A stretch of 64,000 bases of DNA from an uncultured Candidatus Saccharibacteria bacterium (GCA_964565195.1 CAZMCQ010000002.1:82161-146160), one strand, 5' to 3'; positions 2,326 to 62,330 are shown, counted from the stretch's first letter. A program made the numbers and translations. Notes: a model not told the origin generated them from the letters alone.

Positions 2326-3473
2326 AAAAACGAGTCCTCATTTTCAGCATTGCCTATGAGCCGCTCTTAGGGGGAGCAGAACTCGCGGTCAGGAATATCA
2401 CTGACCGTTTGTCTGCTTATGAGTTTGATTTGATCACCGCGCGTTTTTCCCGGAAGCACGCCGAGCAGGAGAGGATCGGCAACGTTAATGTTTACCGTGT
2501 TGGTTTTGGGAGTCGCTTGGGGCGCTATCTTTATCCAATGTTGGCCTGGCGGCTGGCGAGCAAACTTCACAAGGGGCGTCCTTACCAATTAGTTTGGTCA
2601 ATTATGGCCGCCTATGCGGGTGCGGCGGCCCTGATGTTTCTGCGCCGGTTTCCGGCAGTTAATTATTTGCTCACGCTGCAGGAAGGCGATCCGATCGTGC
2701 ATATTCACCGGCGCGTGCGAGGGATGAAGAAGATGTGGCAGCGGATTTTCGGCCGCGCCGATTATGTGCAGGCGATCAGCCGGCACCTCGCAGAGTGGGC
2801 GCGTGCCGAAGGCGCGGCGTGTCCGATCGAAATTGTACCCAATGGCGTTGCCGTTGAGAAATTTACCCCCACTCTTTCTCCCCCTCATGAGGGGGAGAGG
2901 AAGAGGGGGTCACAATTTACGATAATTACGACTTCAAGGTTGGTGCCGAAGAACGGTTTAGATATTTTGATTCGCGCTCTTGCTGTCATCCTGGAGGGAG
3001 CGAAGCGACTGATAGGATCTCGAGATATAAAATTGCAAATCCTCGGTTCTGGTTCGGAAGAACAAAAGCTTAAAAAACTCGCTCACGATTTGAACGTGAG
3101 TGATTGTGTGGAGTTTCTGGGCGATATCACACCCGATAAAGTTCCGGAATATTTAGTTCGTGCCGATATTTTTGTGCGGCCATCGCGGAGCGAAGGTCTG
3201 GGCACCGCTTTTTTGGAGGCCATGGCCGCGGGCTTGCCGGTTATTGGCACGGCGGTCGGCGGCATTCCGGATTTTTTGCAAGACGGCGCGACTGGACTGT
3301 TTTGCAAAGTCGAGGAGCCAAACGATTTAGCTGCAAAAATCAAATTGTTGTTTGAAGACGCACCGCTTCGGCGCCGCCTCGGGGAAAATGGAAAGAAACT
3401 CGTCGAAGAGCGGTATTCCTGGGACGGCATTGCCGCGCGGATGAATAATATTTTTCAAAAGCTAAGTGTATGA
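2322..3473 (+). CDS. GT4-family glycosyltransferase (carries an in-frame palindromic element insert)
   Basis: C-terminal EGLGTAFLEAMAAGLPVIGTAVGGIPDF motif of GT-B/GT4 enzymes. 4-nt overlap with upstream gene. Insert PTLSPPHEGERKRGS sits in the interdomain linker. Confidence 0.8.
   Translation: MKKRVLIFSIAYEPLLGGAELAVRNITDRLSAYEFDLITARFSRKHAEQERIGNVNVYRVGFGSRLGRYLYPMLAWRLASKLHKGRPYQLVWSIMAAYAGAAALMFLRRFPAVNYLLTLQEGDPIVHIHRRVRGMKKMWQRIFGRADYVQAISRHLAEWARAEGAACPIEIVPNGVAVEKFTPTLSPPHEGERKRGSQFTIITTSRLVPKNGLDILIRALAVILEGAKRLIGSRDIKLQILGSGSEEQKLKKLAHDLNVSDCVEFLGDITPDKVPEYLVRADIFVRPSRSEGLGTAFLEAMAAGLPVIGTAVGGIPDFLQDGATGLFCKVEEPNDLAAKIKLLFEDAPLRRRLGENGKKLVEERYSWDGIAARMNNIFQKLSV
2867..2911. repeat. 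GC-rich palindromic element copy 1 (intragenic, in-frame in a GT4 gene)
   Basis: CCCCCACTCTTTCTCCCCC-tcat-GAGGGGGAGAGGAAGAGGGGG. The arms are reverse complements. Confidence 0.85.
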
Positions 3474-5146
3474 CTCGAAATCAGAAAGTTATTTTCGCAA
3501 TCATTCTGGTCGTGGCAGCATTTTTGATTTTCTTCCGTTTGGGCCGCCAGGATATGCTTGGCGATGACGCGCACTACAGCCTGCGGGCCTATGGCTACTT
3601 GGACTATATGGCCTCGCAGAAGCAGACCACGCCCCTGCAATGGTTCGGCGAGCGGCCGGGCTGGTCGTATCTGTCTTTTCACGACCATCCGCCAGTGTAT
3701 TTTTTTATTCAGCATATCTTTTTCAAACTTTTCGGCGATTCAGTAGTGGTCTCGCGGCTGACTTCGGCGCTGGCCGCTTTAGGGTCTGTGCTGGTGATAT
3801 TTTTTATCGGCAAACATTTGGGTAGCGTCCGGCTCGGCCTCGCGGCTATGGTTGCCCTGGTGCTCAACAATTTTTTTATCTTGAACGGCCGGATCGCGCA
3901 TATCGAATCGCTGCTCATTTTCTGGTTTCTGCTGGGACTGCTGTTCCTGCTGCGCGCTCTGCAGGATTCGCCGAGGGATTTCAAATGGGCGGGATTGTTC
4001 TTCGGCCTCGCGCTGCTGACCAAAGTTTCGCTGCTCTTTATGCTTCCCGCGCTTCTGCTTTATTTTGTCTGGCAAAGGCGGGACGTTTTGCAAAAAAAGG
4101 AATTTTGGCTTGGCCTGGCGATTTTTGTCCTGGCGAGTTCGCCGCTGCTCTTTTATAACCTCAAAATGTATCAGGCGCGTGGGCATTTTGATGTACAATT
4201 TGCCGACCTGTTCGGCCAAAGCAACCGCGACTGGTTCAATCTCGACGGTCGCGTTGGCGGCTTCCATTTGGCGGTGCGCGACACACTGGCTTATTTTTAT
4301 CGGGGGATGTCGTGGCCGTACTTTGTCGCTGCGTTAGGCGCTTTGCTTTTTGCCGTCTGGCAGGGGAAGAAGAATCCGTTATGGTGGCTCGTGGTTTTGG
4401 GGGCGGTTCTGACCGCAATGTTTCTGATGTATGTCGGCGGGGCGTCGCGGTGGCTCGCGATCGTCACGCCATTCACCGCGCTGGCTTTGGGTGGACTAAT
4501 AGATTTTCTCTGGGACACGAAACGGCTGCCGATCGCTTTCGCCAGTGGGGCTCTGGCCGTGTATTCTTTGGTTTTTATTTTCAATTCGAACCATGCCTTG
4601 GCGGCAAGCCGGAATGAATTTTTGACCTCGGCACTGCGCCTGGAAAATTATGGTTACAATCAGCTGGATAAATGGGTGGACAGACTTCTGGCCGGAAAAA
4701 CCGTTCCTTTGCAAACCCGCGATGCCGTAAGTTATATGTGGTTTTTGGGCATTGAGCAGGACGCCTTGCCGTTTTTGCGGGATAAAACCGAATCTGGAAA
4801 TTATAATTCCCTGATTATCTACGATGACGCGATGAACTGGTTTCCGGCAATCTGGGCGCTGGGACGGCATCGTATATACGATGGGGTGCCGAGCATGACC
4901 ACGACGGAGTTTGAGGACTGGATCTCAAATGCAGAGGCACTGAAGTTTCTCAATTCCCTTGACTTCGATAGATTTTATTTCATTCGCGCCAGCGAAGCGC
5001 TGCGCCAGAACGAGCCGGAGGGTCGCAAACCCGCAGAGCCACTCGAATTAATGTACAAGGACCAGAGCGTCAAACCGGAAGTGATCCATAATCTGCAAGG
5101 AGATGAAGCATTTTACATTTACGAGACAGAAGAAATTCGTTTATGA
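3470..5146 (+). CDS. GT-C superfamily membrane glycosyltransferase (ArnT/PMT-like, GT39/GT83-like)
   Basis: 558 aa polytopic membrane protein. N-terminal first-loop GDDAHY motif (DE-like) followed by many hydrophobic helices, typical of polyprenyl-phosphate-sugar dependent GT-C enzymes. Confidence 0.65.
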   Translation: MTRNQKVIFAIILVVAAFLIFFRLGRQDMLGDDAHYSLRAYGYLDYMASQKQTTPLQWFGERPGWSYLSFHDHPPVYFFIQHIFFKLFGDSVVVSRLTSALAALGSVLVIFFIGKHLGSVRLGLAAMVALVLNNFFILNGRIAHIESLLIFWFLLGLLFLLRALQDSPRDFKWAGLFFGLALLTKVSLLFMLPALLLYFVWQRRDVLQKKEFWLGLAIFVLASSPLLFYNLKMYQARGHFDVQFADLFGQSNRDWFNLDGRVGGFHLAVRDTLAYFYRGMSWPYFVAALGALLFAVWQGKKNPLWWLVVLGAVLTAMFLMYVGGASRWLAIVTPFTALALGGLIDFLWDTKRLPIAFASGALAVYSLVFIFNSNHALAASRNEFLTSALRLENYGYNQLDKWVDRLLAGKTVPLQTRDAVSYMWFLGIEQDALPFLRDKTESGNYNSLIIYDDAMNWFPAIWALGRHRIYDGVPSMTTTEFEDWISNAEALKFLNSLDFDRFYFIRASEALRQNEPEGRKPAEPLELMYKDQSVKPEVIHNLQGDEAFYIYETEEIRL

Positions 5147-6222
5147 AAATTTTGCTTTGCACCGGAATTTATCCGCCGGAACCGGGAGGGCCGGCGACCT
5201 ACACCAAGCTTCTGGCGGAAGAGTTAGTGAAGCGTGGGCATATGATTAAAGTGATTACTTATTCTACCCCCACTCTTTCTCCCCCTTATCAAGGGGGAGA
5301 TGAAGAGGGGGTTGTCCGTATTTCTCGTAGCTGGTTCAAACCACTGCACTATTTCAGATATTTCCGAATGGTGAAGAAATTAGGCAAAAATTTTGATGTG
5401 CTTTATGCCCAGGATCCGGTTTCCGCAGGGTATCCGACTTATCTTGCAGCGCGAGTTTTAAAAAAACCTTACGTTGTCAAAGCCACTGGCGACTACTCCT
5501 GGGAACAGGCCATGGGGCGCAAGTTAACGACCGTCTTAATTGATGAATTCCAAAAGCTGCCGCATTATCCCTTTTGGATCAAATTGATGCGTCGCATTCA
5601 AATTCAGGTTTGCAAGGAAGCCAATCTGGTCATCGTACCGTCAGAATATTTGCGGCGCCTGGTGATGGGCTGGGGTATCAAAGAGAAAAAGCTTCATGTA
5701 ATTTATAATGCTTCGCTAGATGTTCCATCCATTTCCCGCGAACTGCACGGGGGCTTTCGGACTGTTTCCGTAGGACGCGATGTAAAGTGGAAAGGATTTG
5801 AAATGTTGCGCGAGGCGGCAGCGGAATTGCAAAAAGAGATTCCCGATCTCAAGCTCGAAATTTTGCAGAATACCCCGCGCGAAATTGTCCTCGAACGTTT
5901 AGCGGCAGCCGACGTGTTCGTATTAAACAGCGCTTACGAGGGGACTTCTCATGTCATTTTGGAGGCCATGGCGCTGGGGACGCCGGTCGTCACGACGCGC
6001 GTCGGGGGCAATTCGGAAATCGTCACGCCCGGGGTTGGTATTCTTGTGGAATTTAACAACAAAGAAGAGATTAAAGAAGCAATTCGCGAACTTTATCATG
6101 ATCCGTCCTTGCGGCAAAGACTTGCGGCGGCAGCGACCCGAATGGTAAAACAGAAATTTTCGCTGGACGGAATGATCAGCGAGACGCTGGCCGTGCTAAA
6201 ATTCTTGATTCCTAATTCATGA
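5143..6222 (+). CDS. GT4-family glycosyltransferase (carries an in-frame palindromic element insert near the N-terminus)
   Basis: C-terminal EGTSHVILEAMALGTPVVTTRVGGNSEIV GT4 motif. Insert encodes PTLSPPYQGGDEEGV. Confidence 0.8.
   Translation: MKILLCTGIYPPEPGGPATYTKLLAEELVKRGHMIKVITYSTPTLSPPYQGGDEEGVVRISRSWFKPLHYFRYFRMVKKLGKNFDVLYAQDPVSAGYPTYLAARVLKKPYVVKATGDYSWEQAMGRKLTTVLIDEFQKLPHYPFWIKLMRRIQIQVCKEANLVIVPSEYLRRLVMGWGIKEKKLHVIYNASLDVPSISRELHGGFRTVSVGRDVKWKGFEMLREAAAELQKEIPDLKLEILQNTPREIVLERLAAADVFVLNSAYEGTSHVILEAMALGTPVVTTRVGGNSEIVTPGVGILVEFNNKEEIKEAIRELYHDPSLRQRLAAAATRMVKQKFSLDGMISETLAVLKFLIPNS
5267..5312. repeat. GC-rich palindromic element copy 2 (intragenic, in-frame in a GT4 gene)
   Basis: CCCCCACTCTTTCTCCCCC-ttatcaa-GGGGGAGATGAAGAGGGGG. 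Left arm identical to copy 1. Confidence 0.85.
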
Positions 6223-6238
6223 TCCTTGATTCTATTTT

Positions 6239-7363
6239 ATGCGTGTCTTGATGTTGAGCTTGGACCGCGGACTGCTCGGCGAGGGGTCTTCGGGTGATGT
6301 TGTGGAACGCCACAAAAAGTACGCGGATCTTGTCGGCACTTTGGATGTCATAGTTTTTTCCTCCAAAAAATATGCGCCGCGGCAGCACGCGGAAAATTTT
6401 CGGGTCTTTCCGACCAAGTCGCGAAAATTTTCGCACTGGGCGCGCGCGGTTGAAATTGCCATAAAGCTTCATCGCGAGCAGCCTTATGATTTGCTTATTA
6501 CCCAGGAATTCGCGGCGCCGGCCGGAGCAAAAATCAAGCAAAAGACCGGCCTTCCCTGGCTCGTAAGCATTCATGGCATGTTTTTCAGTTCGGAATGGCT
6601 GCGCCTGCGGCCTTTGGAATGGTATCTCTACTTTCGTGTGAGGCGCGCCATAAAAGCGGCGGACGCTTTCCGGGTCAACAACGAAATTATTGAGGAGAAA
6701 CTGGAGGAGTGGGGGCTTCATAAACCGATTCTCGTACAGCCGACCGCAATAGACATAAAAAATTTTTTGAGCGCCGAGAAACCGGTAAATACAGTACCAA
6801 AAATTTTATACGTTGGCCGCCTTTCCCCGGAAAAGAATGTGGCGATGCTGATTGAGGCGGCCCGAGAAATCCGCCAGTGGTTTGAGCTGGAAATTGTCGG
6901 TTCAGGCCCCGAGGAAAAGCGGCTTAAAAAAATGGCGCGGGAGGCCGGGCGGATTTATTTTTTGGGCCGACAGAGCATGAAGCAGCTACCAGAGATCTAT
7001 CGCCGCGCGGATATTTTCGTTCTGCCTTCAAACACCGAAAGCTTCGGCCAAGTGCTGCTGCAGGCCGCAGCCGCTGGCTGCGCGATTATTGCCACGCGGA
7101 CGGCAGGGGCACGCAGCATTATTCAAGATGGTTTGGCTGGTATTCTCATTGCAGTTGGCGATCGCGAAGAATTAAAAAGCGCGATTGAGCGTTTGATAAC
7201 AGACCGGGAACTTCGCAGTCGCCTCTCGACTGCTGCGCGGAAAATGGCCGAGGATTACAATCAGGATGAGGCCGTTGGAAAGTTGATTGATTTTTGGAAA
7301 GAGATTGCTCGCAACCTCACCCCAACCCTCTCCGATATCGGAGAGGGAGAAAGGGTGAGGTAG
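6239..7363 (+). CDS. GT4-family glycosyltransferase (C-terminal 15 aa and stop codon supplied by a palindromic element)
   Basis: ESFGQVLLQAAAAGCAIIATRTAGARSII GT4 motif. Last residues LTPTLSDIGEGERVR are encoded by a palindrome at 7315-7360. Confidence 0.8.
   Translation: MRVLMLSLDRGLLGEGSSGDVVERHKKYADLVGTLDVIVFSSKKYAPRQHAENFRVFPTKSRKFSHWARAVEIAIKLHREQPYDLLITQEFAAPAGAKIKQKTGLPWLVSIHGMFFSSEWLRLRPLEWYLYFRVRRAIKAADAFRVNNEIIEEKLEEWGLHKPILVQPTAIDIKNFLSAEKPVNTVPKILYVGRLSPEKNVAMLIEAAREIRQWFELEIVGSGPEEKRLKKMAREAGRIYFLGRQSMKQLPEIYRRADIFVLPSNTESFGQVLLQAAAAGCAIIATRTAGARSIIQDGLAGILIAVGDREELKSAIERLITDRELRSRLSTAARKMAEDYNQDEAVGKLIDFWKEIARNLTPTLSDIGEGERVR
7315..7360. repeat. GC-rich palindromic element copy 3 (forms the 3' end of a GT4 gene)
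   Basis: CCTCACCCCAACCCTCTCC-gatatc-GGAGAGGGAGAAAGGGTGAGG. Confidence 0.8.
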
Positions 7364-7373
7364 GGAGCTCGTT

Positions 7374-8450
7374 ATGAAACTAATTTTTGTCACTCGAAAA
7401 GTTGACCGCGGCGATGCCATAACCGGCTTTGTTTTTGGGTGGATAAATGCTCTGGCGGCAAAGGTGGAAAAACTTTATGTTATCTGCCAGGAAAAAGGAG
7501 ACACATCAGGATTGCCAAGGAATGTTGAGGTTTATTCTTTTGGCAAAGAACTCGGCTACGGCAGGATTAGGCAAGGTTTGAAGCTTTGGAATTTGGTATT
7601 TGGAATTTGCAAAAACTCTGAAGGAGTTTTTGCCCATATGCATCCAATTTATGCGATCATTGCCGGTCTCGCTGCGCGTCTTCGTGGCAAGAGAGTAATT
7701 CTTTGGTACACGCACAAGGCCGTGGATTGGAAATTGAGAATTGCACACGCGCTGGTTAATGAAGTTTTGACAGCGAGTGCGGAAAGTTTTCGGTTGCCAT
7801 CGAAAAAAGTTAAGGTTGTCGGCCACGGCATTGACCTTGAAAAGTTCCACCCCCTCCCATCCCTCCCCCCTCGAGGGGGAGGAAAGGTGGGGGGGAAATT
7901 TAGAATAGCTTCCATTGGCCGCATCAGTCCGGTGAAAGATTATGAGACTCTGATCAAAGCCGCGGATATACTTCAAGAAAGTGGTATCAAGGATTTTGTC
8001 ATTGAGATCTATGGCCGGATCGGTTTGTCGGAGCATCAGGGCTATTACGATTCGCTTGTGGAATTTGTGAACAATGCCAATCTGGACGAGATTGTGAAGT
8101 TTCAGGGCGAACTTGATTATGGCTATGTTGATGAGATTTATAATGAAGCAGATCTTTTTGTAAATTTGAGTCAGACCGGCAGCATTGATAAAGCCGTGCT
8201 CGAAGCCGCAGCTTGTGAGACGCTGGTTTTGACTTCGAACGAAGCCTTTGAGAAGATTCTCAACGAGATTTCACCGCTTTTATTTTTTCGCCGCGATCAC
8301 CCCGAGGATTTAGCTGCGAAGATTGAGGGGATAAAATCATTATCCGGTGAAGTGCGCGTGAAGATTGGCAGGCAGCTTCGCAAAATGGTCGAGCAAAATC
8401 ATAATTTGAACAATTTGGCTGCGAAGATTGTCGAGGAGTTTAAATCATGA
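7374..8450 (+). CDS. GT4-family glycosyltransferase (carries an in-frame palindromic element insert in the interdomain linker)
   Basis: GT-B architecture. Insert HPLPSLPPRGGGKVGGK is at the same linker position as in the gene at 2322. Confidence 0.75.
   Translation: MKLIFVTRKVDRGDAITGFVFGWINALAAKVEKLYVICQEKGDTSGLPRNVEVYSFGKELGYGRIRQGLKLWNLVFGICKNSEGVFAHMHPIYAIIAGLAARLRGKRVILWYTHKAVDWKLRIAHALVNEVLTASAESFRLPSKKVKVVGHGIDLEKFHPLPSLPPRGGGKVGGKFRIASIGRISPVKDYETLIKAADILQESGIKDFVIEIYGRIGLSEHQGYYDSLVEFVNNANLDEIVKFQGELDYGYVDEIYNEADLFVNLSQTGSIDKAVLEAAACETLVLTSNEAFEKILNEISPLLFFRRDHPEDLAAKIEGIKSLSGEVRVKIGRQLRKMVEQNHNLNNLAAKIVEEFKS
7847..7895. repeat. GC-rich palindromic element copy 4 (intragenic, in-frame in a GT4 gene)
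   Basis: CCACCCCCTCCCATCCCTCCCCC-ctcgag-GGGGAGGAAAGGTGGGGGGG. Confidence 0.8.
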
Positions 8451-9847: not shown

Positions 9848-10581
9848 CCTTTCTGCCTGAAATAGGCTTCCCGTATTCTTGCCTTATCATGGACAAGCCG
9901 CGGCCTGGTTACATTGCCATTCGTGTACCCAAGTTTTACCATAACGATATCAAAAATGACATCGAGGGCTTCTTTTTGAACACTCGCAGCCTTTCCACAC
10001 GTTGCACCGACAAGCGTTTCTGGTCCGATGTCGAGCACTATTTCATGGTCAACCTCTCCTCCCAGTTCCACGTTTTTCTGGCAAACCATTGCGATTGTGA
10101 ATGCACCACGCTGCCGAGCCACTGCCGCGGCTGTCCGAGTGTACGGGGTGCGCCCAGTCGCCGAAATGCAGATAAGCACATCGTTCTTAGAGAGGTGCAT
10201 CGCCTCAACATCCTTGCGACCTTCTTCCGGGCTGTCTTCAAGCTCCTCGCGGCCGAATTTTTCAAAGATTGCCGACCCGCCCGCAACGCAGTAAAAGAAT
10301 TGCTCCACTTTCGCATCTTGATGATTTTGGGGGAGCTCGCGCATAACTGACATGCCGGCCACGCCGCTTCCTCCGGCGCCAATGGTGATTACCCTTCCTC
10401 CCTGCCTGACCTTGTCAATGATCACTCTCGCAGCTGTTATAAGCTGTTCTGTGGCTTGTACCAGGGCTTTATGGATTTGCTGTGATTCCTTGATCCGGTA
10501 TTTCCCGATCTTCTCTTCGTCCCAGGTGTCGATACCCACGGTTTCTTGATTGAATTCCTTGTCCGGACTCCATTGTCTCAT
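9844..10581 (-). CDS. SIS-domain protein of the N-acetylmuramic acid 6-phosphate etherase (MurQ)/GckR family
   Basis: GGRVITIGAGGSGVAGM and ICISATGRTPYTRTAAAVARQRG align with the MurQ motifs GGRLIYLGAGTSGRLG and GIAASGRTPY. Convergent with the upstream gene, sharing a CTAG stop overlap. Confidence 0.6.
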   Translation of the reverse strand: MRQWSPDKEFNQETVGIDTWDEEKIGKYRIKESQQIHKALVQATEQLITAARVIIDKVRQGGRVITIGAGGSGVAGMSVMRELPQNHQDAKVEQFFYCVAGGSAIFEKFGREELEDSPEEGRKDVEAMHLSKNDVLICISATGRTPYTRTAAAVARQRGAFTIAMVCQKNVELGGEVDHEIVLDIGPETLVGATCGKAASVQKEALDVIFDIVMVKLGYTNGNVTRPRLVHDKARIREAYFRQKG

Positions 10582-10591
10582 AATTTTTTCC

Positions 10592-11251
10592 TTAAAATGC
10601 TGAATTTATTATTTCATGGATGCTCGGATCAGCGAAGGATTCCACCATAGCTATCGCTTTGGTAAAATCATGATCCGTATTGTAGTTGTGGCGAAATGCG
10701 ATTACTCGCAACCCTGCTTCTCGCGCGGCTGTCAGGCCCGTAGTGGAGTCTTCAATCGCAATTGCATTTTCTGGTTCGACGCCCATGCTTCTCAAGGCGA
10801 ACTGGTAGCTATCTGGGGCTGGTTTGGGTTTGCGGAAATGTTCTTTGGCAACAATTCTTTCAAATCCCGACCGCAAATTGGTGATCGCCAATATCTTTTC
10901 CGCTTGTTCTAGATAGTTTCCTGTTACGACCGCTTGTCTGTAACCTTTTGCATTCAACAAATTGATCAGTGAATGAATTCCCGGGGTTGGAAAAAGAGCA
11001 GCGAACAACAATTTGTAGAACACGTCGCTATAGTGTTGTTCATCAGTCTCGATTCCGCTTTCTCGAATGAACTCTTTTCGCACGTCCTCATGCGGCCTTC
11101 CAGTTCCGTCGATTTCAAGATAAAATCCAGGCGAGATAGTTCCGCCGAAATGTTTTACGGTTTCCTGATGGGCTTTGTCTCGCAGTGGTTCACTAGGAAC
11201 AAGAGGGCCATCCAGGTCCCATAATATTGTAGGCATCAAATAACTTCCCAA
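10592..11251 (-). CDS. HAD-superfamily hydrolase (beta-phosphoglucomutase/phosphatase-like)
   Basis: N-terminal ILWDLDGPL (DxDG) motif I and a C-terminal IAIEDSTTGLTAAREAGL motif IV region. Confidence 0.7.
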   Translation of the reverse strand: MGSYLMPTILWDLDGPLVPSEPLRDKAHQETVKHFGGTISPGFYLEIDGTGRPHEDVRKEFIRESGIETDEQHYSDVFYKLLFAALFPTPGIHSLINLLNAKGYRQAVVTGNYLEQAEKILAITNLRSGFERIVAKEHFRKPKPAPDSYQFALRSMGVEPENAIAIEDSTTGLTAAREAGLRVIAFRHNYNTDHDFTKAIAMVESFADPSIHEIINSAF

Positions 11252-11422
11252 TTAAAATAAACTTTAAACGTATCATAGATCAAAAACCCCTTTTTGTGAA
11301 GACCCAGTCTTGTACAATTATCCCGTGACGGTTTGGGGTAGTTGATTTTTTGTTGAATTCCGCCGCCGATATCAGCAGTGGATTTTTTGTTGTTTTTTTG
11401 CTATATTTAGTCGCGTATTTCA

Positions 11423-13228
11423 ATGACCGAAGACCGGAAACAATATATTGTGGGCATCAATCTGCCCATGAAGTCGCGTTGCCATGAAAGCGGGGTGGCG
11501 CTTTTGGATATGGAGGGCAGTATATTATTTGCAATCAATGAGGAGCGGCTGTCGAGAAAGAAGCAAGACGGCGATTTCCCGGAAAAATCCATAGCCGCGA
11601 TGTTTGCTCATACTGGGATAAAGAAAGAAGAGATTGCCGTGGTGGCGGTGCCGACACTGTCGTTTTGGGGCAAGGTCGGGCGTGTGATGCAATTTTTGTG
11701 GCGTGAGCGGCGAAGGAGAATGTTAAATCCGGCAACGTATTTCGCTATTTGGCGCGTGGCTTTTGGCAAAAAGAGATCAGGGAGATTGGGGAAATCGGGG
11801 GAAATAAACCAGGAGCAGGATCCGTTTATGATGCGCTACCAGTGGCGCGATTTCATAAAAAAGAATTTTCCGAACGCGAAGATAAAAATGATTGACCACC
11901 ATCTCTGCCACGCCGCCTCGGCATACTACACCAGCCCCTGGGAAAACGCCTTGATTATCACCGCTGACGGCGCGGGCAATATGCTTTCTTCAATCGTCGC
12001 CGTCGGAGAAAAAGGACGGATCAGAATTTTGGACAAAACCTTCGTCCCGCACTCGCCGGGAAGTTTTTGGGGGAGTATTACCAAGGTTTGCGGTTTCCGT
12101 TCCGGGACGCGCCACGGCGGCAAAACCACTGGTCTGGCCGCGGCCGGCGACCCAAATAAACTTATTTATAAAATGCGGCAGATTATCTCCTGCGATGGAA
12201 TTCGATTTCACGTTCGCGAAGAGTTGCTGTTTGATCCGCAGCGTCTCATCCCGAACTGGTCGAGTTATGAGCCAGAGCGGCTTAAGAATTTCCTGGGAGA
12301 AAATTCGCGCGAGGATGTGGCGGCGGCGGCGCAGAAACGGCTCGAAGAAATCATCGTGGAACTTGTGCGAAATGCTCGCAAGGTCGTGCCTTTTGACAAA
12401 GTCGTAATGGCTGGCGGCACTTTTGCCAACGTGCTTGTTAATGAAAAAGTTTTGGAACTTCCGGGAATTGACGATGTCTACATTTGCCCGGCCATGTCAG
12501 ATGGTGGTTTGGCCGTGGGTGCCGCGCTGTATACCCTTTCTAGGATTAAAAAATTTTTGCCGCGGCCGATTGGCAATGTTTATCTGGGGCCGAAATATTC
12601 GGAAGGTGCAATTAAGAATTATTTAGAAAAAATTGGCGCGAAATTCGAGCTGATGAATCGGCCAGCGACAAAAATTGCTGAGCTCATTCATAACAACAAG
12701 GTCGTCGCGTTCTACCAGGGCCGGATGGAGTGGGGGCCGCGCGCGCTGGGCAACCGTTCAATTCTTTACGCGGCCAAAGACCCGAAAGTAAATGACTGGC
12801 TCAATAAAAAGCTGCGGCGCAGCGAGTTTATGCCCTTTGCCCCGGTGACTCTGATTGAGCACATTAAAGACTGCTACATCGGCATTGCGGACGACCCCTT
12901 GGCGGCAAAATATATGACCATTACCTATCAGTGCACAGACCAAATGAAGCGCGAATCCCCGGCGTGCGCGCACCTCGACGGCACCGCGCGTCCGCAGGTG
13001 ATAAAGCGCGAGGATAATCCATATTATTACGACATTTTGAGCGAATACCACAAACTTTCCGGTATTCCGACCATCATAAATACGAGTTTCAATATGCACG
13101 AAGAGCCGATCGTCTGTCAGCCGGAAGACGCAGTCCGCGCCTTTCTTGACTCTGGGCTTGACTGCCTGGTAATGGAGAATTATCTTTTAAGACTGGAAGA
13201 AAATGAACCCCGTTCAATCCAACTTTGA
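11423..13228 (+). CDS. Carbamoyltransferase, NodU/CmcH family (O-carbamoylation of a sugar)
   Basis: 601 aa. N-terminal Kae1/YgjD-like fold (IVGINLPMKSRCHESGVALL, HHLCHAASAY) and a C-terminal carbamoyltransferase domain. Confidence 0.75.
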   Translation: MTEDRKQYIVGINLPMKSRCHESGVALLDMEGSILFAINEERLSRKKQDGDFPEKSIAAMFAHTGIKKEEIAVVAVPTLSFWGKVGRVMQFLWRERRRRMLNPATYFAIWRVAFGKKRSGRLGKSGEINQEQDPFMMRYQWRDFIKKNFPNAKIKMIDHHLCHAASAYYTSPWENALIITADGAGNMLSSIVAVGEKGRIRILDKTFVPHSPGSFWGSITKVCGFRSGTRHGGKTTGLAAAGDPNKLIYKMRQIISCDGIRFHVREELLFDPQRLIPNWSSYEPERLKNFLGENSREDVAAAAQKRLEEIIVELVRNARKVVPFDKVVMAGGTFANVLVNEKVLELPGIDDVYICPAMSDGGLAVGAALYTLSRIKKFLPRPIGNVYLGPKYSEGAIKNYLEKIGAKFELMNRPATKIAELIHNNKVVAFYQGRMEWGPRALGNRSILYAAKDPKVNDWLNKKLRRSEFMPFAPVTLIEHIKDCYIGIADDPLAAKYMTITYQCTDQMKRESPACAHLDGTARPQVIKREDNPYYYDILSEYHKLSGIPTIINTSFNMHEEPIVCQPEDAVRAFLDSGLDCLVMENYLLRLEENEPRSIQL

Positions 13229-13267: not shown

Positions 13268-14425
13268 GTGAAGATTTGCGTAGTCGCCTATAAATTTGGC
13301 ACGGAACAGGAAATCGGCGAGCATCTCGGCACTTATCACTATTTCATTGAGAAGATGCGCCGGCTGGCGCGGCTTGGAAATGAAGTCTATGTGATCGCGC
13401 CGTGGCTTTCGTATTTCAAAAAAGGCAGCACCGAAGTTGATGGCGTAAAAATTCTGCGCTATTATCCGCCATTTCAGAACCGCCCCAAGTTGAGAGTTTT
13501 GAATAATTTATTGCGCTGGTGGTATATCAAAGCAACGCAGATGCAAGTTTCAAAATTGGACAAACAAACTTCGTTGGATATTATCTACGTCTGGCAGGCG
13601 CGGGAGACTGGTTATGCCGTGGCACAAATTGTCGACAAGCTTCGCGCGCCCTTTGTTTTCCGGCAGATCACGGCTTGGGAGTGGCATTTCCAAAAAGGTA
13701 TGCCGGATCGCGCGGCGCAGATGAAATTTGCCAAAGTGATCTATGACACGGCAAAGAAAGTTGTGTTTGTGAGCCGCGCGGCTTCCGAAGAAGGGCGCCG
13801 TGCCGGACTTTCAGAAGAAAAAATTGCGATAATTGGCGTTGGAATAGAAACCGATTTTTTTCAGCCGCGGGATGTGAAAATAGAATGGGATGTTTCGTTC
13901 ATTGGGCGGATCAATTTTGCCGAGAAAGGCATTGGTTATCTGCTGGAGGCAATGCCGGAGATTGTTAAGATTATTCCCAGCGCCAAACTTGGCATTATCG
14001 GCGGCGGTGGCGAGACACCACGGATGCGGGAGTTTATTAAAGATTTAGGAATCGAAAAAAATGTGGAACTGCTCGGGCAACAGCCGTTTTCCAAGCTGCC
14101 TGCATATCTAAATTCCTCCAAAATTTTAGTTGTGCCTTCTGCGTGGGTCGAACATTTCGGCCAGGTGACGGTGGAGGGTATGGCTTCAGGAATTCCAGTC
14201 GTGAATACGAACATCGGCGGCAGTCCGGAGATAAATACCGACGGCCAGACCGGGCTCATCGTTCCGCCAAAAGATTCACATGCTTTGGCCGCAGCAATCA
14301 TAAAATTACTGACCGACGATGAATTAAGGCAAAGAATGGGCCGCGCGGCGCGCGAGCGCGTCCTGCAAAATTACACATATGATGTTTTGGTCAATAAATT
14401 CCTGGAGCTTGTAATAAATGTCTAA
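13268..14425 (+). CDS. GT4-family glycosyltransferase (GTG start)
   Basis: EHFGQVTVEGMASGIPVVNTNIGGSPEI GT4 motif, 385 aa. Confidence 0.75.
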   Translation: MKICVVAYKFGTEQEIGEHLGTYHYFIEKMRRLARLGNEVYVIAPWLSYFKKGSTEVDGVKILRYYPPFQNRPKLRVLNNLLRWWYIKATQMQVSKLDKQTSLDIIYVWQARETGYAVAQIVDKLRAPFVFRQITAWEWHFQKGMPDRAAQMKFAKVIYDTAKKVVFVSRAASEEGRRAGLSEEKIAIIGVGIETDFFQPRDVKIEWDVSFIGRINFAEKGIGYLLEAMPEIVKIIPSAKLGIIGGGGETPRMREFIKDLGIEKNVELLGQQPFSKLPAYLNSSKILVVPSAWVEHFGQVTVEGMASGIPVVNTNIGGSPEINTDGQTGLIVPPKDSHALAAAIIKLLTDDELRQRMGRAARERVLQNYTYDVLVNKFLELVINV

Positions 14426-15122
14426 AGTCGTCTTCATTTCCGGCGGCAGCCGCGGCATCGGCGCCGCGACCGTGCTACGTTTCGCGAGGGAGAAGTTTGA
14501 TATTGCCTTTACTTATAATGAAGGACAGGGCGAAGCTTCGGCGGTTGCGGAAAAAGCAAAAAGTTTGGGATCGCCTGAAGTTTTGACCATGCGACTTGAT
14601 ATGGAAAATGACGAAAATATCAGAAACGTTGTAAAAATCGCCCACGAGAAGTTTGGCAAGATCGACATTCTGATAAACAATGCGGGAACTTTTGAACGGG
14701 GAACGCTTTCCGAGCAGACTTTTGCTGTCATCCATCGCCAGATTGCGGCCAATCTCGAAGGTATGATCAAGCTCACCCACGAATTTTTGCCCTACGTCAA
14801 AGAAGCCATCATAAATATTGCAAGTGTGGTTGGGTTTCTCGGCAAACCTCGAATTTCCGTCTACACAGCGACCAAATGGGGCGTGCGCGGTTTTACCAAA
14901 TCCCTCGCCAGAGAGTACCCAGATCTACGCATATACGTCGTTAATCCCGGGCTGACCGATACCCGAATGGGCCGGCCCGAGGGCATGCCGGCGGAAAAAG
15001 TGGCCGAAACAATTTTTGACGCGGCGACTGGGAAACGCCGCCTTGCCAGCGGCAGTGATATTGCGGTAAAATCAAATCTTTACTTCTTAAAGTCGTTGAT
15101 GAAAAAATTATTGGGACGATGA
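14418..15122 (+). CDS. Short-chain dehydrogenase/reductase (SDR) family oxidoreductase
   Basis: VVFISGGSRGIGAAT glycine-rich NAD(P)-binding motif, NNAG, YTATKWGVRG (YxxxK). Confidence 0.8.
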   Translation: MSKVVFISGGSRGIGAATVLRFAREKFDIAFTYNEGQGEASAVAEKAKSLGSPEVLTMRLDMENDENIRNVVKIAHEKFGKIDILINNAGTFERGTLSEQTFAVIHRQIAANLEGMIKLTHEFLPYVKEAIINIASVVGFLGKPRISVYTATKWGVRGFTKSLAREYPDLRIYVVNPGLTDTRMGRPEGMPAEKVAETIFDAATGKRRLASGSDIAVKSNLYFLKSLMKKLLGR

Positions 15123-16291
15123 GGATCATCTATTTAGATAGTGGACGACTACCGACCGAAAAAGCGCACGGCCTGCAGATCATGAAGATGTGCGAAGCGT
15201 TTGCGGCAGGTGGCGCGGAAGTGGAGCTCGTCATTTCTTCCAGAAAAAACCCTGGAGCCGGCGATCCGTTTGAGTATTATCAAGTCAAGCGCAATTTCGA
15301 AATTACCAGGCTTTGGTCGCTGGATCTGGTCAATATTGTTTCAAAATACGGCAGTTGGCTGTCGCGATTAAGTTTTATTTTCACAGCGAAGCGATATTTG
15401 AAATCTCAAAGGTATGATGTTTTGTATCTTCGTGAACATATGAGTGGCCTGTTTTTCCGAAACTTTGTTTTGGAACTCCACATTCTCCCGCAAAAAATCC
15501 GACGTGCGGATTTAAAAATTTGGCAGAAGGCGAGAAAGCTCGTTGTGCTTACCAGCCACACGAAGAAGTTGCTCGTCGAGCACGGAATTCCTGAAGGAAA
15601 AATTCTGGTCGCACCGGATGCGGTTGAAGCCGCAAAATTCGAAATTCGAAATTCGAAATTCGAAACGAGGACAGCATTGGGACTGCCGCAGGATAAAAAG
15701 ATCGTGATGTACACTGGGCATGTCTATGAGTGGAAAGGCGCAGATGTATTGCTGGAAGCCGCTCGATTGTCGTCATTGCGAGCGCCAGCGAAGCAATCCC
15801 AAAGTGGCGAGATTGCTTCGTCGACCGAGGCTCCTCGCAATGACCAAGATATGCTTTTCATCTTCGTCGGCGGCACGGACTGGGATATGCAGAGATTCCG
15901 GCCGCTGGCCGAAGGGCTTGCCAATGTTTTGTTGCTCGGCCAGAAACCCCATGACTTGATTCCAAAATATCTGGGCGCAGCGGATATTTTAGTTTTGCCC
16001 AATTCCGGCAAATCCGATATTTCCAAATACTACACCTCGCCGCTGAAAATGTTTGAATACATGGCTGCTGGCAAACCAATCGTGGCCTCGGATCTGCCGG
16101 CTATCCGGGAGGTTTTAAATGAAAATAATGCTGTCTTGGTCAGGCCGGACGACCCGCAAGCTCTGGCACAAGGCATAAAAAGAATTTTGGAAAATCCGGA
16201 TTTGGGGACGAAACTGGCCAATCAGGCGCGTCTTGACGTGGCCAGCTACAACTGGCCAGCTCGCGCGCAAAAGATTATGATGTCATTATGA
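15119..16291 (+). CDS. GT4-family glycosyltransferase carrying a 7-bp tandem repeat and a 73-bp palindromic insert inside the CDS
   Basis: GT-B C-terminal motif (TSPLKMFEYMAAGKPIVASDLPAIREV). Internal segments FEIRNSKFET (from the AAATTCG x4 repeat) and SSLRAPAKQSQSGEIASSTEAPRNDQDM (from the palindrome). Confidence 0.7.
   Translation: MRIIYLDSGRLPTEKAHGLQIMKMCEAFAAGGAEVELVISSRKNPGAGDPFEYYQVKRNFEITRLWSLDLVNIVSKYGSWLSRLSFIFTAKRYLKSQRYDVLYLREHMSGLFFRNFVLELHILPQKIRRADLKIWQKARKLVVLTSHTKKLLVEHGIPEGKILVAPDAVEAAKFEIRNSKFETRTALGLPQDKKIVMYTGHVYEWKGADVLLEAARLSSLRAPAKQSQSGEIASSTEAPRNDQDMLFIFVGGTDWDMQRFRPLAEGLANVLLLGQKPHDLIPKYLGAADILVLPNSGKSDISKYYTSPLKMFEYMAAGKPIVASDLPAIREVLNENNAVLVRPDDPQALAQGIKRILENPDLGTKLANQARLDVASYNWPARAQKIMMSL
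15635..15667. repeat. Heptanucleotide tandem repeat (AAATTCG)x4 plus a partial unit, inside a GT4 CDS
   Basis: Four perfect 7-bp units at 15635-15662 followed by AAACG. The unit length is not a multiple of 3. Confidence 0.85.
15772..15844. repeat. 73-bp imperfect palindrome of a second type, in-frame inside a GT4 gene
   Basis: GTCATTGCGAG...CGAAGCAATC..(center)..GATTGCTTCG...CTCGCAATGAC. Outer and inner arm pairs are reverse complements. Confidence 0.7.
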
Positions 16292-24321: not shown

Positions 24322-24390
24322 ATGATAATCTAATTAGTTCTTTTACAAACATACATAGTTTCGAAGCTACCTATCAAAGGAGGATTGGAA

Positions 24391-25134: not shown

Positions 25135-25139
25135 CTGTT

Positions 25140-25190
25140 CCGGAGAGTTGCTTTGCGAAAGCAGAGCGGCTCTCCGGGATTTTTTATTTT
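25140..25190 (+). terminator. Rho-independent terminator after the hypothetical gene ending at 25134
   Basis: CCGGAGAG...CTCTCCGG stem, followed by GATTTTTTATTTTTGG. Confidence 0.6.
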
Positions 25191-25208
25191 TGGCTTAAAT
25201 AAGCTAAA

Positions 25209-25252
25209 CTCCTTTCAATCTCCCCCTTATTAAGGGGGAGAAAAAGAGGGGG
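25209..25252. repeat. GC-rich palindromic element copy 5 (intergenic)
   Basis: CTCCTTTCAATCTCCCCC-ttattaa-GGGGGAGAAAAAGAGGGGG. Confidence 0.8.
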
Positions 25253-25329
25253 TTCTGATACCCCTTGACACTTTTTGACCCCTTTTGATATGATAGTTTT
25301 AGGTTTACGTATTTTTCATTCCTTTAGCA

Positions 25330-25370
25330 CCCCCACCTAACCTCCCCCATCAAGGGGGAGGAAAGGGGAG
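25330..25370. repeat. GC-rich palindromic element copy 6 (intergenic, just upstream of the HTH gene)
   Basis: CCCCCACCTAACCTCCCCC-atcaa-GGGGGAGGAAAGGGGAG. Confidence 0.75.
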
Positions 25371-25381
25371 AAAAAAGTAAA

Positions 25382-25630
25382 ATGCCACAAGAAATCATCG
25401 AAAACGCGGTTTACACGCGCGAGGAGGCGCAGGATCTGCTCAAAATCAGCACGAGCACGATCAAGCGCCTCTTAAAGCGCGGGCTTATCCGCGCGAACAA
25501 AGTCGGCGGGCAGTACCGGATCCTGGGCAAAGAGCTGCTGCGTCTGGTTTCGCCTGGGCTCGAGTCCAAAGCCGAAAAATCCTATCTCAAGCTCAAGAAG
25601 AAAGTCGTTGAAAAAATTAATCCCTGGTAA
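25382..25630 (+). CDS. Small excisionase-family helix-turn-helix DNA-binding protein
   Basis: 82 aa. YTREEAQDLLKISTSTIKRLLKRGLIRANKVGGQYRI matches the excisionase/MerR-like HTH pattern. Stop overlaps the start of the ABC gene (TAATG). Confidence 0.6.
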   Translation: MPQEIIENAVYTREEAQDLLKISTSTIKRLLKRGLIRANKVGGQYRILGKELLRLVSPGLESKAEKSYLKLKKKVVEKINPW

Positions 25631-49240: not shown

Positions 49241-49312
49241 TCCGAAACAAATTTAAATGTTCAAAATTCAAAATTCTAAACGTTTCGAATTTCGAAATTC
49301 GAATTTCGGATT
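49241..49312. repeat. AAATTC/TTCGAAA-type repeats including a perfect 20-nt palindrome TTCGAATTTCGAAATTCGAA, upstream of pilB
   Basis: Seen directly in the 117-bp pilB upstream region. Sequence-related to the heptamer repeat at 15635. Confidence 0.7.
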
Positions 49313-49321
49313 TTAACGCTT

Positions 49322-57362: not shown

Positions 57363-57439
57363 GCGCCCGTAGCTCAGCGGATTAGAGCATCTGTCTTCGG
57401 AACAGAGGGTCGGGGGTTCGAATCCCTCCGGGCGCGCCA
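57363..57439 (+). tRNA. tRNA-Arg (anticodon TCG), CCA encoded
   Basis: Manual fold: acceptor GCGCCCG/CGGGCGC, D-arm GCTC-AGCGGATTA-GAGC, anticodon arm TCTGT-CTTCGGA-ACAGA, T-arm GGGGG-TTCGAAT-CCCTC, discriminator G, CCA. Confidence 0.85.
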
Positions 57440-57625
57440 AAGCAACTTTGTTGCTTTGGCGCAATCCCAAAAATGGGGCCCCCCAAAAATGCTTGCATTT
57501 TTTGGGGAGAGCGGGATGCGATTGGAGATTGCAGAAATCCCGACTTGTCGGGATTGCGAAAATCGCAGATCCGCATCACGCGAGGGTCGCTGGCTCAACT
57601 GGCAGACCTGCCCGCCAATGCCTAC

Positions 57626-57698
57626 GCCTCCATAGCTCAACTGGTAGAGCAGCTCCCTCTTAAGGAGAAGGTTGGGGGTTCGAGACCCTCTGGGGGCA
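57626..57698 (+). tRNA. tRNA-Lys (anticodon CTT), CCA not encoded
   Basis: Manual fold: acceptor GCCTCCA/TGGGGGC (one G-T pair), D-arm GCTC-AACTGGTA-GAGC, anticodon loop CTCTTAA, T-arm GGGGG-TTCGAGA-CCCTC. Confidence 0.75.
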
Positions 57699-57900: not shown

Positions 57901-57909
57901 GGAGGTGTT

Positions 57910-58064: not shown

Positions 58065-58094
58065 TTTGCCTTGAGGGGGTTATAATAAAGCCAT

Positions 58095-58307: not shown

Positions 58308-58311
58308 ATTT

Positions 58312-59368: not shown

Positions 59369-59396
59369 TAGAAACCAAAATAAAAATCAATAAAAA

Positions 59397-60662: not shown

Positions 60663-60676
60663 GGTATAATCAGTTT

Positions 60677-61315
60677 ATGCGTTATTGGGATATCTCAATG
60701 TCGCTTGAGAGCGGCATGGTGACTTGGGCGGGACAAGAAAAGTTTAAGCGCAAAGAAATAGTGGCCGGCGAGGCAATCGTCTCGCTACTTTCTATGACCA
60801 CGCATACCGGCACGCACGTGGACGCGCCGAAGCATTTTCTCGGCAGAAAAGCCGGCAGCGTGGATAAATTGGACTTAAGCAAGTTGATCGGGCCGTGTGA
60901 GGTGATTGAATTACCCCCCCACCTTTCCTCCCCCTCGAGGGGGGAGGGATGGGAGGGGATATTCCGTCGACTGAACAAAGGGGATAGGGTTCTTTTCAAG
61001 ACTTCAAATTCCCGCCGCCGCCTTTTGGAAAAGAAAAACTTCGTGACTGATTATGTTTCGCTAAATCTTGAACAGGCGAAATTATTGGCTGCAAAAAAGA
61101 TCGCGCTTGTTGGCGTGGACTACCTTGGCGTGGAAGCAAAAGGCAGCCAGGGGCGGGGGCACCCGGTGCACAAAACCCTGCTCAAAGCCGGTATCGTCGT
61201 GGTGGAGGGATTAAATCTCTCAAAAATAAAGCCAGGTCATTACAACCTGGCTGTGTTGCCTTTGAAAATTGTGAATGGCGACGGCGCCCCGGCGCGGGCT
61301 ATTCTTTATAAGTAA
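60677..61315 (+). CDS. Putative cyclase family protein (kynurenine formamidase-like) with an in-frame palindromic insert
   Basis: HTGTHVDAPKHF metal-binding motif. TATAAT is only 6 nt upstream of the ATG (possibly leaderless). Insert LPPHLSSPSRGEGWEGI. Confidence 0.7.
   Translation: MRYWDISMSLESGMVTWAGQEKFKRKEIVAGEAIVSLLSMTTHTGTHVDAPKHFLGRKAGSVDKLDLSKLIGPCEVIELPPHLSSPSRGEGWEGIFRRLNKGDRVLFKTSNSRRRLLEKKNFVTDYVSLNLEQAKLLAAKKIALVGVDYLGVEAKGSQGRGHPVHKTLLKAGIVVVEGLNLSKIKPGHYNLAVLPLKIVNGDGAPARAILYK
60914..60958. repeat. GC-rich palindromic element copy 7 (intragenic, in-frame in the cyclase gene)
   Basis: CCCCCCCACCTTTCCTCCCCC-tcgag-GGGGGGAGGGATGGGAGGGG. Near-identical peptide to copy 4 (PPHLSSPSRGEGWEG). 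Confidence 0.8.
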
Positions 61316-62330
61316 CGTCGTGACCACCAAATTGCTTCCTTAATAATGCTACGATCTTGTTGGAAAATTTTTCCTGGTTTTTGGGGTCGGCCGATTCCTG
61401 ACGGACCTTAAACGAATCTTCTATGACTCGGGCGTCTATCCCGAGTTTTTTTGCTTCTTTGATAGTCCACTCGCCCTCGCCTGTTGAATGGATTTCGCCG
61501 ATGACTTTGTTCAAATTTTCCGTATCCAAAGCGTTCTTGGCGAGATCAATAAGCCATGATGAGACGACTGATCCTTTGCGCCAGATTTGAGCAATTTGCG
61601 AGAGATGAAGCTGGAAGGGTGAGGCCTTGAGCACTGCGAATCCCTCGGCAATGGCTTCCATCATTCCGTACTCAATGCCGTTGTGCACCATTTTTACGAA
61701 ATGCCCGGCGCCAGAAGGGCCGACGAGGCCATAATGCGACCCCTCCCGGCCTTCGGCCACCCTCCCCTCGCCAGGAGAGGGAGTAGCGGAAGGGGCAGCC
61801 AATGCTTTGAACACTGGTTCAACCCGGGGCCAGACTTTTTTGGGACCGCCGACCATGAGCGAGAAGCCGTTTTTCTCACCATGCACGCCCCCAGAAGTTC
61901 CGGCGTCAAAAAAGTGAATACCTTTTTCGGCGAGCTTTTTCGCGCGCTCCTGTGAGTCGCGGTAAAAAGAATTGCCGCCGTCAATAATGATGTCTCCAGC
62001 CGATAATTTTTTGGAGACAGTCCTAATGAACTCATCTACGAGTTCACCAGAGGGCAGCATCAGCCAGATGATCTTGGGGAGAGGGAGGGCTGCGATTAAA
62101 CTTTCAACAGTTTCGTAAGTCGCACTCGCGCCCCCTCTTCTTTTATTCCTCTCCACCGAGTTCGGGGGAGAGGAGGGAGGTGAGGGGGGTGTCTCCGCAG
62201 TGAAAAACTTTTGCAATTCTTCTCGCGGTTCGGCAGAACGATTCCAGGCAAGTACCCGAAATCCTTTCGAATGCAGGCGCCGCGCGATCTGCGACCCCAT
62301 CCGGCCCAGACCAATTATTCCTATGGTCAT
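61299..62330 (-). CDS. gnd: 6-phosphogluconate dehydrogenase, decarboxylating (short NAD-binding Gnd/YqeC type) with two in-frame palindromic inserts
   Basis: N-terminal MTIGIIGLGRMGSQIARRL Rossmann motif and 6PGDH C-terminal domain motifs (MVHNGIEYGMMEAIAEGF). ATGA overlap with the upstream zwf. Confidence 0.8.
   Translation of the reverse strand: MTIGIIGLGRMGSQIARRLHSKGFRVLAWNRSAEPREELQKFFTAETPPSPPSSPPNSVERNKRRGGASATYETVESLIAALPLPKIIWLMLPSGELVDEFIRTVSKKLSAGDIIIDGGNSFYRDSQERAKKLAEKGIHFFDAGTSGGVHGEKNGFSLMVGGPKKVWPRVEPVFKALAAPSATPSPGEGRVAEGREGSHYGLVGPSGAGHFVKMVHNGIEYGMMEAIAEGFAVLKASPFQLHLSQIAQIWRKGSVVSSWLIDLAKNALDTENLNKVIGEIHSTGEGEWTIKEAKKLGIDARVIEDSFKVRQESADPKNQEKFSNKIVALLRKQFGGHDVTYKE
61739..61798. 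repeat. Diverged GC-rich palindromic element copy 8 (intragenic, in-frame in gnd)
   Basis: CCCCTCCCGGCCTTCGGCCACCCTCCCCTC-gccagg-AGAGGGAGTAGCGGAAGGGGCAGCC. Imperfect arms. Encodes TPSPGEGRVAEGREG on the - strand. Confidence 0.55.
62131..62190. repeat. GC-rich palindromic element copy 9 (intragenic, in-frame in gnd)
   Basis: CCCCCTCTTCTTTTATTCCTCTCCACCGAG-TTCGGGGGAGAGGAGGGAGGTGAGGGGGG. Encodes PPSPPSSPPNSVERNKRRGG on the - strand. Confidence 0.7.

Follow-up and report, generated by a model that had tools for sequence, protein, structure and literature searches.

A 64,000-nucleotide stretch of DNA deposited under an uncultured Candidatus Saccharibacteria bacterium (GCA_964565195.1 CAZMCQ010000002.1:82161-146160; this whole stretch is referred to here as the window) contains a family of short GC-rich palindromes, labelled e1 to e9 in window order, which lie in unrelated genes as well as between genes, occur in both orientations and include near-identical copies. 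We consider it likely that these palindromes form a dispersed family of non-autonomous mobile (selfish) elements of ~45 to 60 bp, spread in trans in a Candidatus Doudnabacteria genome. By its homologs, the host lineage is Candidatus Doudnabacteria (Patescibacteria, or candidate phyla radiation [CPR]; one protein is MBI4049964.1), and the host is a small-genome groundwater bacterium of this radiation. The window has ~50% G+C, open reading frames (ORFs) cover ~96% of it, and its genes comprise a glycan-synthesis cluster, type IV pilus genes, holA, a cyclase gene, gnd and zwf.

The core of the family is readily separated from background, with the pattern CTCCCCC-N(2-10)-GGGGGAG matching six times in the window (2878, 5279, 7863, 25220, 25342 and 60928) versus 0.00 times expected from 100 dinucleotide shuffles. 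Each core match is the inner stem of an imperfect palindrome of 43 to 49 nt, and family units measure about 43 to 61 bp. We observe a two-tier hairpin in which the inner stem CTCCCCC/GGGGGAG, a small internal loop and the outer stem CCCCC/GGGGG accompany a variable apical loop, with a left arm that is 76 to 90% pyrimidine and a right arm that is 90 to 100% purine. The arms of 20 nt are conserved around a variable centre of 4 to ~40 nt, in the manner of terminal inverted repeats. The dinucleotide AC precedes the C-run in all seven strong copies, where it may merely extend the palindrome (ACCCCC...GGGGGT), and a fixed tetranucleotide is absent.

A covariance model built from the six core copies (R1) recovered these copies from the window at 56 to 67 bits, together with two weak matches at 7310-7366 (E = 0.03) and 62141-62193 (E = 0.12); no other part of the window was matched. 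A further model (R2), derived from the 62130-type copy of five genomes, found e3 (7307-7368) at 40 bits and also matched e7, e4, e1, e2, e5 and e6. Since the two models cross-detect e1 to e7 and e9, eight copies belong to one superfamily; e8 (61738-61797) was found by neither model in the window scan. Thus, of the nine copies claimed by the initial annotation, eight stand (six core copies, with those at 7314 and 62130 added by covariance model) and the one at 61739 is only a weak member, the coordinates being right to within a few bases throughout. RNA folding, suggested there as a check, gave two-tier hairpins for all nine copies (−24 to −42 kcal/mol), while DNA folding was better than that of shuffled controls for seven of nine, only marginally so for e4 and e7 among the nine, and no better for e8 (z = −0.13). 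Searches beyond the window gave only a sub-threshold chance match in Rfam, no match among PLSDB plasmids, and nothing in a protein database search with the concatenated element-encoded peptides.

Seven of the nine copies are genic, and all seven preserve the frame and have no stop in the frame used, with Pfam domains flanking them on both sides; the hosts are four GT4 glycosyltransferase (GT) genes, a PF04199 cyclase gene and a 6-phosphogluconate dehydrogenase (6PGDH) gene (NAD_binding_2 plus 6PGD). The first copy, e1 (2865..2911; palindrome ACCCCCACTCTTTCTCCCCC-TCATGA-GGGGGAGAGGAAGAGGGGGT; RNA fold, −32.6 kcal/mol), sits in the interdomain linker of the GT4 gene at 2322-3473 (GT4_a), where it is read as TPTLSPPHEGERKRGS (aa 182-197). 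A member of the same subfamily, e2 (5266..5312), is read as TPTLSPPYQGGDEEGV (aa 42-57) in the GT4 gene at 5143-6222. The variant e3 (7314..7359; CCTCACCCCAACCCTCTCC-GATATC-GGAGAGGGAGAAAGGGTGAGG) supplies the last ~15 aa of the GT gene at 6239-7363, with a TAG stop directly after its right arm, and e4 (7849..7896; CCCCTCCCATCCCTCCCCCCTCGAGGGGGAGGAAAGGTGGGGGGG), read as HPLPSLPPRGGGKVGG (aa 159-174) in the GT gene at 7374-8450, occupies the linker position that e1 occupies in its paralog. In the cyclase gene (60677-61315), e7 (60913..60958) is the e4 element inverted, read as PPHLSSPSRGEGWEG (aa 80-94). The 6PGDH gene (61299-62339, minus strand) holds two copies, namely the longer, three-tier "type B" e9 (62124..62195) at site 1, read as TPPSPPSSPPNSVERNKRRGGA and with an inner stem that is partly degenerate in the window genome, and the degenerate, doubtful e8 (61738..61797) at site 2, where the NAD-binding and C-terminal domains meet, read as PSATPSPGEGRVAEGREGS. 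We retain e8 as a probable decayed relative of the family because it is a Pro/Ser then Gly/Glu insert where orthologs hold clear palindromes. These placements bear out the earlier reading of in-frame residence, of the host identities, of a linker site common to two GT4 paralogs and of an element that provides a C-terminus.

The two remaining copies are intergenic, also as first described. Copy e5 (25206..25254) is flanked on one side by the terminator of the gene at 24385-25134 and on the other by the −35 box of a promoter close to consensus (25265-25294). Copy e6 (25329..25371) occupies the 5' leader of an ORF of 82 aa (25382-25630), with its purine arm ending 11 nt ahead of the ATG. Non-coding sequence makes up 3.7% of the window and holds two of nine copies (P = 0.04), an excess that fits selection against most genic landings. 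We also considered the elements as intrinsic terminators, i.e. GC-rich hairpins followed by a T-run, and ruled this out, as no T tract follows any of the nine copies and the true terminator of the upstream gene, at 25137-25180, is separate from e5.

Evidence for mobility comes from the relation between copies in different genes. Copy e4 of a GT4 gene matches the reverse complement of the cyclase-gene copy e7 at 45 of 46 positions, so that, beyond what the initial annotation had noted, the two are the same 45-nt element in opposite orientation, yielding two different peptides. Similarly, e1 and e2 are identical at 43 of 46 positions, with identical left arms.

These identities also bear on the idea that each palindrome originated on the spot, independently of the others, in an unconstrained loop, through template switching, fold-back repair or slippage, and that the copies resemble each other only through G/C-rich low complexity. 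Shuffles of the same composition do also fold well, some 6PGDH site-1 inserts are not hairpins, unrelated hairpins and tandemly repeated heptamers fill the GT4 linker in other CPR genomes, and a heptamer array is found in a paralog linker of the window itself (15635-15665). However, the 45/46 and 43/46 identities between copies of different genes largely refute a local origin, and they are joined by identical arms at non-orthologous sites in two genomes, by six core matches versus none in shuffles and by model scores of 56 to 67 bits. We therefore regard a local origin as very unlikely, and low complexity, which had been named as a possible source of the similarity, does not account for it.

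The phenomenon is not confined to the window genome, as a syntenic relative and several CPR genomes hold the same or other hairpin families at the same loops (related genome and metagenome stretches are given L-numbers; L286 and L287 are stretches of the syntenic relative, GCA_964396685.1). The syntenic relative, whose proteins are 53 to 69% identical to those of the window, has seven family copies in 39.7 kb, all of them genic. Three of its copies share the arms ACCCCCACTTCATCTCCCCC / GGGGGAGAAAGAGAGGGGGT, which differ from the window consensus ACCCCCACTCTTTCTCCCCC, indicating that each genome has its own subfamily. Occupied sites differ as well: the relative is occupied where the window is native (a second site in the GT4_a ortholog and the GT_b linker), and it has no copies at the e3 and e7 positions. 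At 6PGDH site 2, the L287 copy has arms identical to those of e3 around a different loop; conserved arms with a free centre are what one would expect if a mobilising activity recognises the arms. Hairpins are nested in apical loops at L286 6429-6497 and 18364-18432, at L209 7740-7850 and at L125 10480-10620 (site 2; a 40-nt second palindrome). The distribution is patchy: 1.31 Mb drawn from 80 related genomes yielded ~8 hits, and 0.55 Mb of metagenome loci very few, versus 8 to 9 in the 64-kb window.

Ortholog alignments further indicate that the segments are lineage specific, as had been suggested, since orthologs without them are the majority. At 6PGDH site 1, a 5-residue loop (FGGKT type) is present in 83 of the 120 closest relatives, and at site 2, 103 of 120 orthologs have no more than five residues; the window protein is longer by ~25 residues at site 1 and by ~17 at site 2. 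Site 2 is filled by an e3-type element in L287 and by e8 in the window, and some of the site-1 inserts are non-hairpin. In a neighbour-joining tree of these orthologs, site-1 carriers are scattered among empty-site relatives, although the tree is weakly resolved and too weak to separate one ancient site-1 insertion followed by many losses from repeated insertions. The cyclase loop that holds e7 lacks any element in six orthologs, while L125 and L204 hold other variants, giving three variants in three genomes. The e2 site is occupied by a different element in L286, and the e3 C-terminal tail is missing from the orthologs in L208, L209 and L286, which end before it. At the GT_d linker, the window and L209 have an e4-type copy, L286 has a copy of the relative's own subfamily, and L227, L219 and L253 have none. 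The P0002 and P0137 proteins carry the same element-type peptides.

Two ways in which the segments could be something other than acquired DNA are addressed by the same comparisons. That they are ancient native loops would agree with the sharing of site-1 and site-2 inserts by several divergent orthologs, but the majority of orthologs are without inserts and the carriers are scattered in the tree. That they are artefacts of metagenome assembly is contradicted by two independent short-read assemblies (Logan contigs L001 and L002), which reproduce 60929-63913, including e8 and e9, at 99.8 to 99.9% identity, as well as by related copies in metagenome-assembled genomes and contigs of other studies. 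Because the two independent assemblies agree, the window sequence is not an assembly artefact, and native loops and artefacts together are a highly improbable explanation. Both contigs (~3 kb) break at 60929, the centre of e7, with last 30 nt that are also an exact match to e4, which is where assemblies would be expected to stop if they met a repeat.

At the protein level, the encoded peptides appear to lie in loops or tolerated positions away from the core, since the low-confidence segments of the structure models, a check that the initial annotation had proposed, coincide with the inserts. In the AlphaFold2 model of 6PGDH (mean pLDDT, 87.7), values below 50 are predicted only at residues 56-69 (e9) and 186-200 (e8), and in that of GT4_a (mean pLDDT, 89.4), confidence dips to 56 to 66 over residues 181-200 (e1). 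An alternative is that the elements are not translated at all, due to ribosome hopping or removal from the mRNA. The GC-rich "byp" hairpins of Magnusiomyces mitochondria and T4 gene 60 are examples of translational bypass, and stable hairpins within ORFs, together with Phe codons on both sides of e1 and e4, recall it. Against this, all seven genic copies are in frame and stop-free, the chance of seven of seven in frame being ~(1/3)^7; the flanking Phe codons appear to be the linker-bordering residues of orthologs; and removal of e1 would leave no linker, whereas ortholog linkers are never shorter than ~9 to 10 residues. We give bypass a probability close to negligible.

Taken as mobile elements, the palindromes could have spread as follows. 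An enzyme acting in trans would recognise the arms or the folded, single-strand hairpin, perhaps aided by gene conversion between copies. In a ~96% coding genome, most landings would strike genes, and the surviving copies would be the in-frame ones at interdomain linkers, surface loops and gene ends. Survival within ORFs would be aided by the composition of the arms, because pure C/T and pure G/A stretches cannot hold stop codons; 40 of 54 element frames are without a stop, and e4 and e7 are open in all six frames. Survivors would be translated as flexible Pro/Ser/Leu and then Gly/Glu/Arg/Lys peptides. Permissive loops may be re-occupied repeatedly, with resident copies replaced or homogenised by the currently active subfamily of the genome, and it is through this replacement that elements would come to stand in for native loops. 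Conversion or re-insertion would thus explain both replacement and genome-specific homogeneity. Trans mobilisation and the recognition of arms or hairpins are parts of this mechanism that we infer from the copies, and the term selfish and any effect on expression are to be read as equally provisional.

Several observations weigh against this interpretation. While presence of the segments is lineage specific, insertion in the simple sense proposed initially holds only in part, as e1, e2 and e7 take the place of a native loop of similar length. Copy e7 replaces most of a ~15-residue native segment with a net gain of 3 to 4 residues, while in L204 the element is simply added; e2 replaces an 11-residue loop, and L208 and L209 have an 11-aa non-palindromic segment there; and e1 fills the whole GT4 interdomain linker, which is hypervariable and ranges from 9 to more than 30 residues in 120 orthologs. 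A simple cut-and-paste model does not predict such replacement of native residues. Neither a transposase nor a RAYT-like gene was found in the 64-kb window or in 40 kb of the relative, and no target-site duplication is evident at the e4/e7 boundaries as set by their 45/46 identity. A 7-bp repeat flanking e1 (AATTTAC) was considered as a target duplication and is probably not one: judged from sequence comparison, it appears to coincide with the Phe codons at the borders of the linker in orthologs. Finally, copy number and the coding/intergenic ratio rest on 64 kb of the genome, which is a small sample.

The site-1 copy of 6PGDH presents a further difficulty. The DNA of e9 is 83 to 93% identical among the window, L203, L204, L205 and L124, compared with 57 to 69% for the rest of the gene, and third codon positions are 75 to 95% identical within the copy versus 31 to 48% elsewhere in the gene. 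Divergence of the copy shows no parallel with host-gene divergence (rho = −0.43, not significant), and high-scoring copies of this type occur only at 6PGDH site 1 in 1.5 Mb. A neutral old insertion would have decayed; the data would fit a conserved master inserting repeatedly at this one site, conversion that renews the copy, or selection acting on DNA or RNA.

A rival explanation of the family is that the hairpins are not parasites and are kept by the host for a DNA or RNA function: they might stabilise mRNA or take part in its processing, pause translation at domain boundaries, or be bound by a nucleoid or regulatory protein. The site-1 copy, 83 to 93% identical across five genomes with saturated synonymous sites and confined to that site in 1.5 Mb, would agree with a function, as would the location of copies exactly at domain boundaries (GT4 linkers and 6PGDH site 2) and the positions of e6, in a 5' leader beside the ribosome-binding region, and of e5, which abuts a promoter. 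Yet in most orthologs the hairpins are absent and the loops short, close relatives hold different elements at the same site, and a single element occurs both ways round in unrelated genes. Folding does not consistently favour the sense strand over the antisense strand, there is no G-U bias on the sense strand, and compensatory changes are almost lacking (one pair in A5 and three pairs in A2). The stems show conservation but not covariation, which gives no ground for claiming structural selection. We judge a host-kept function quite unlikely for the family. A bolder proposal would have hairpin-targeted turnover in CPR genomes overwrite the resident hairpins of a limited set of loops again and again with whichever subfamily is active, through gene conversion or re-insertion into the old copy, and thereby continually rewrite enzyme loops and linkers, with the 6PGDH site-1 copy domesticated and under purifying selection at the DNA or RNA level; we hold this to be unlikely. 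Dispersal of mobile palindromes remains our preferred account of the family.

Several other features of the window were recorded. Around the intergenic copies, the order along 25137-25630 is a strong terminator (25137-25180), e5, an 11/12-match sigma-70 promoter (25265-25294), e6 and the 82-aa ORF. This ORF (25382-25630) is unannotated, ends at the start of an ABC transporter gene and, from its sequence, looks like it encodes a putative small DNA-binding protein. Near the start of the window, two overlapping neighbour ORFs (41-562 and 507-1406) each match UDP-glucose/GDP-mannose dehydrogenase domains; the same two-gene layout is found in L286 (7488-8315 and 8305-9096), and since the syntenic relative has this arrangement, it is conserved and not a frameshift artefact. 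A 25-nt inverted repeat (57520-57571; 72% complementary) lies between tRNA-Arg (57363-57439) and tRNA-Lys (57626-57698). In AT-rich intergenic sequence upstream of a pilB-like ATPase gene, at 49260-49313, TTCAAAA-type heptamers and, after them, inverted TTTCGAA heptamers make up a long imperfect palindrome.

Other repeats are found in the same kinds of loop. The GT4 gene at 15119-16291 contains a perfect heptamer tandem repeat (AAATTCG, 4.4 copies, 15635-15665), read as KFEIRNSKFE, in the same linker that holds e1 and e4 in the paralogs, and 7-mer arrays also occur in the orthologous GT4 linkers of other CPR genomes. Other in-frame hairpin families are present in the cyclase gene of L123 (~11375-12001), in GT4 genes of L210, L213 and L216, and in L286 at 14198-15340 and 10001-11230. 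These families include a double hairpin (TCGGCCCAAGGCCGA-TCCGCCTCGGGCGGA) read as SAQGRSASGG, the sequence CCTGCCGGCGAGGCAGG read as LPAGEAGL, and a longer element read as VIASDRRERGNL..ASSQTPRND (VIAS...ASSQTPRND). In-frame hairpins seem to be widespread among the sampled relatives within the Patescibacteria. A scan of IMG/VR with the core motif returned, among the matches listed, contigs of 63 to 70% GC (L007, L026, L035, L049 and others) with multiple CTCCCCC..GGGGGAG hairpins each. These hairpins share only the 7-bp inner stem with the window family; their flanks are conserved but different (e.g., ..GTCGCTGCGCGAC..), their outer stems differ, and they score ~17 to 18 bits with R2. They are REP-like families of high-GC organisms that have probably converged on a stable stem, and the scan has no bearing on the window family.

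Patescibacterial genomes rank among the smallest and most gene-dense on record and are usually called streamlined. Elements such as these have practical consequences, including inflated apparent protein divergence, spurious low-complexity segments in CPR protein families and broken short-read assemblies, and they could serve as strain-level markers. The recurrent loops, together with the conservation at synonymous sites, offer a system for asking how such elements move without an obvious transposase and whether hosts co-opt them. In the literature that we searched on CPR, Patescibacteria and Doudnabacteria, no description of such an in-frame palindromic family was found, a result that is limited to that literature and is not proof of absence from others. 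In-frame repeat elements as such are already known; it is the hairpin family of this phylum that is undescribed in the searched literature.

Among known systems, the MITEs (miniature inverted-repeat transposable elements) offer a parallel in that the conserved arms act like terminal inverted repeats around a variable centre. Small bacterial repeats fused to ORFs include BRE of Bordetella, BOX/RUP/SPRITE and RU-1/2/3 (PMC3184786), and copies of BRE, BOX, RUP and RU can likewise extend or interrupt ORFs in frame. The window elements differ from these groups in being much shorter than typical MITEs and in a far higher genic share, and neither a target duplication nor a parent insertion sequence was found in the sequence examined. 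Coding palindromes are also known from organelles, namely those of Volvox (PMC2670323) and of Nematomorpha (PMC6649704). Organellar palindromes, including the GC clusters of yeast mitochondria, share with the window family the invasion of coding sequence by short hairpin repeats that are tolerated in frame and interpreted as selfish, but they belong to eukaryote organelle genomes and are unrelated in sequence. The Nematomorpha repeats further differ in that they reach 284 bp and, instead of being a dispersed family of short units, have both arms coding inside one gene.

The REP, BIME and REPIN elements resemble the window family as short imperfect GC-rich hairpins with conserved mismatches and a genome-specific consensus, which are non-autonomous and make no target duplication. 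However, REPs are extragenic by definition whereas seven of nine window copies are genic, and a gene for RAYT (TnpA-REP; a Y1 HUH enzyme) is, as stated, missing from the 64-kb window and from the 40 kb of the relative. Unlike the two REPs of a REPIN, the arms of the window elements are not themselves palindromic. Next to the hairpins, no conserved GTAG-type flank was found, only the constant AC that may extend the palindrome. Only as a lead, the mechanism may be closer to the single-strand hairpin biology of REP/RAYT or IS200/IS605-type elements than to that of classical MITEs.

The likeness to Rickettsia palindromic elements (RPEs) drawn by the initial annotation holds by analogy only. Those listed in PMC3184786, RPE-1 to RPE-10 (Ogata et al. 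2000), are ~105 to 146 bp long. Both are dispersed palindromic families with stable hairpins in a small, gene-dense genome, with many copies genic and in frame and others intergenic, peptides located in loops and no transposase known. The window units, at 43 to 61 bp, are a third to half of RPE size, the host is a patescibacterium and not one of the Rickettsiales, and no sequence relation is shown, with Rfam giving no match. The window family further differs in having a pyrimidine arm followed by a purine arm, in copies that often replace loops and in the re-occupation of the same loops by different variants. Selfish hairpins inside enzyme genes are a parallel to Rickettsia and suggest that mobile DNA in genomes with little intergenic space survives through being translatable.

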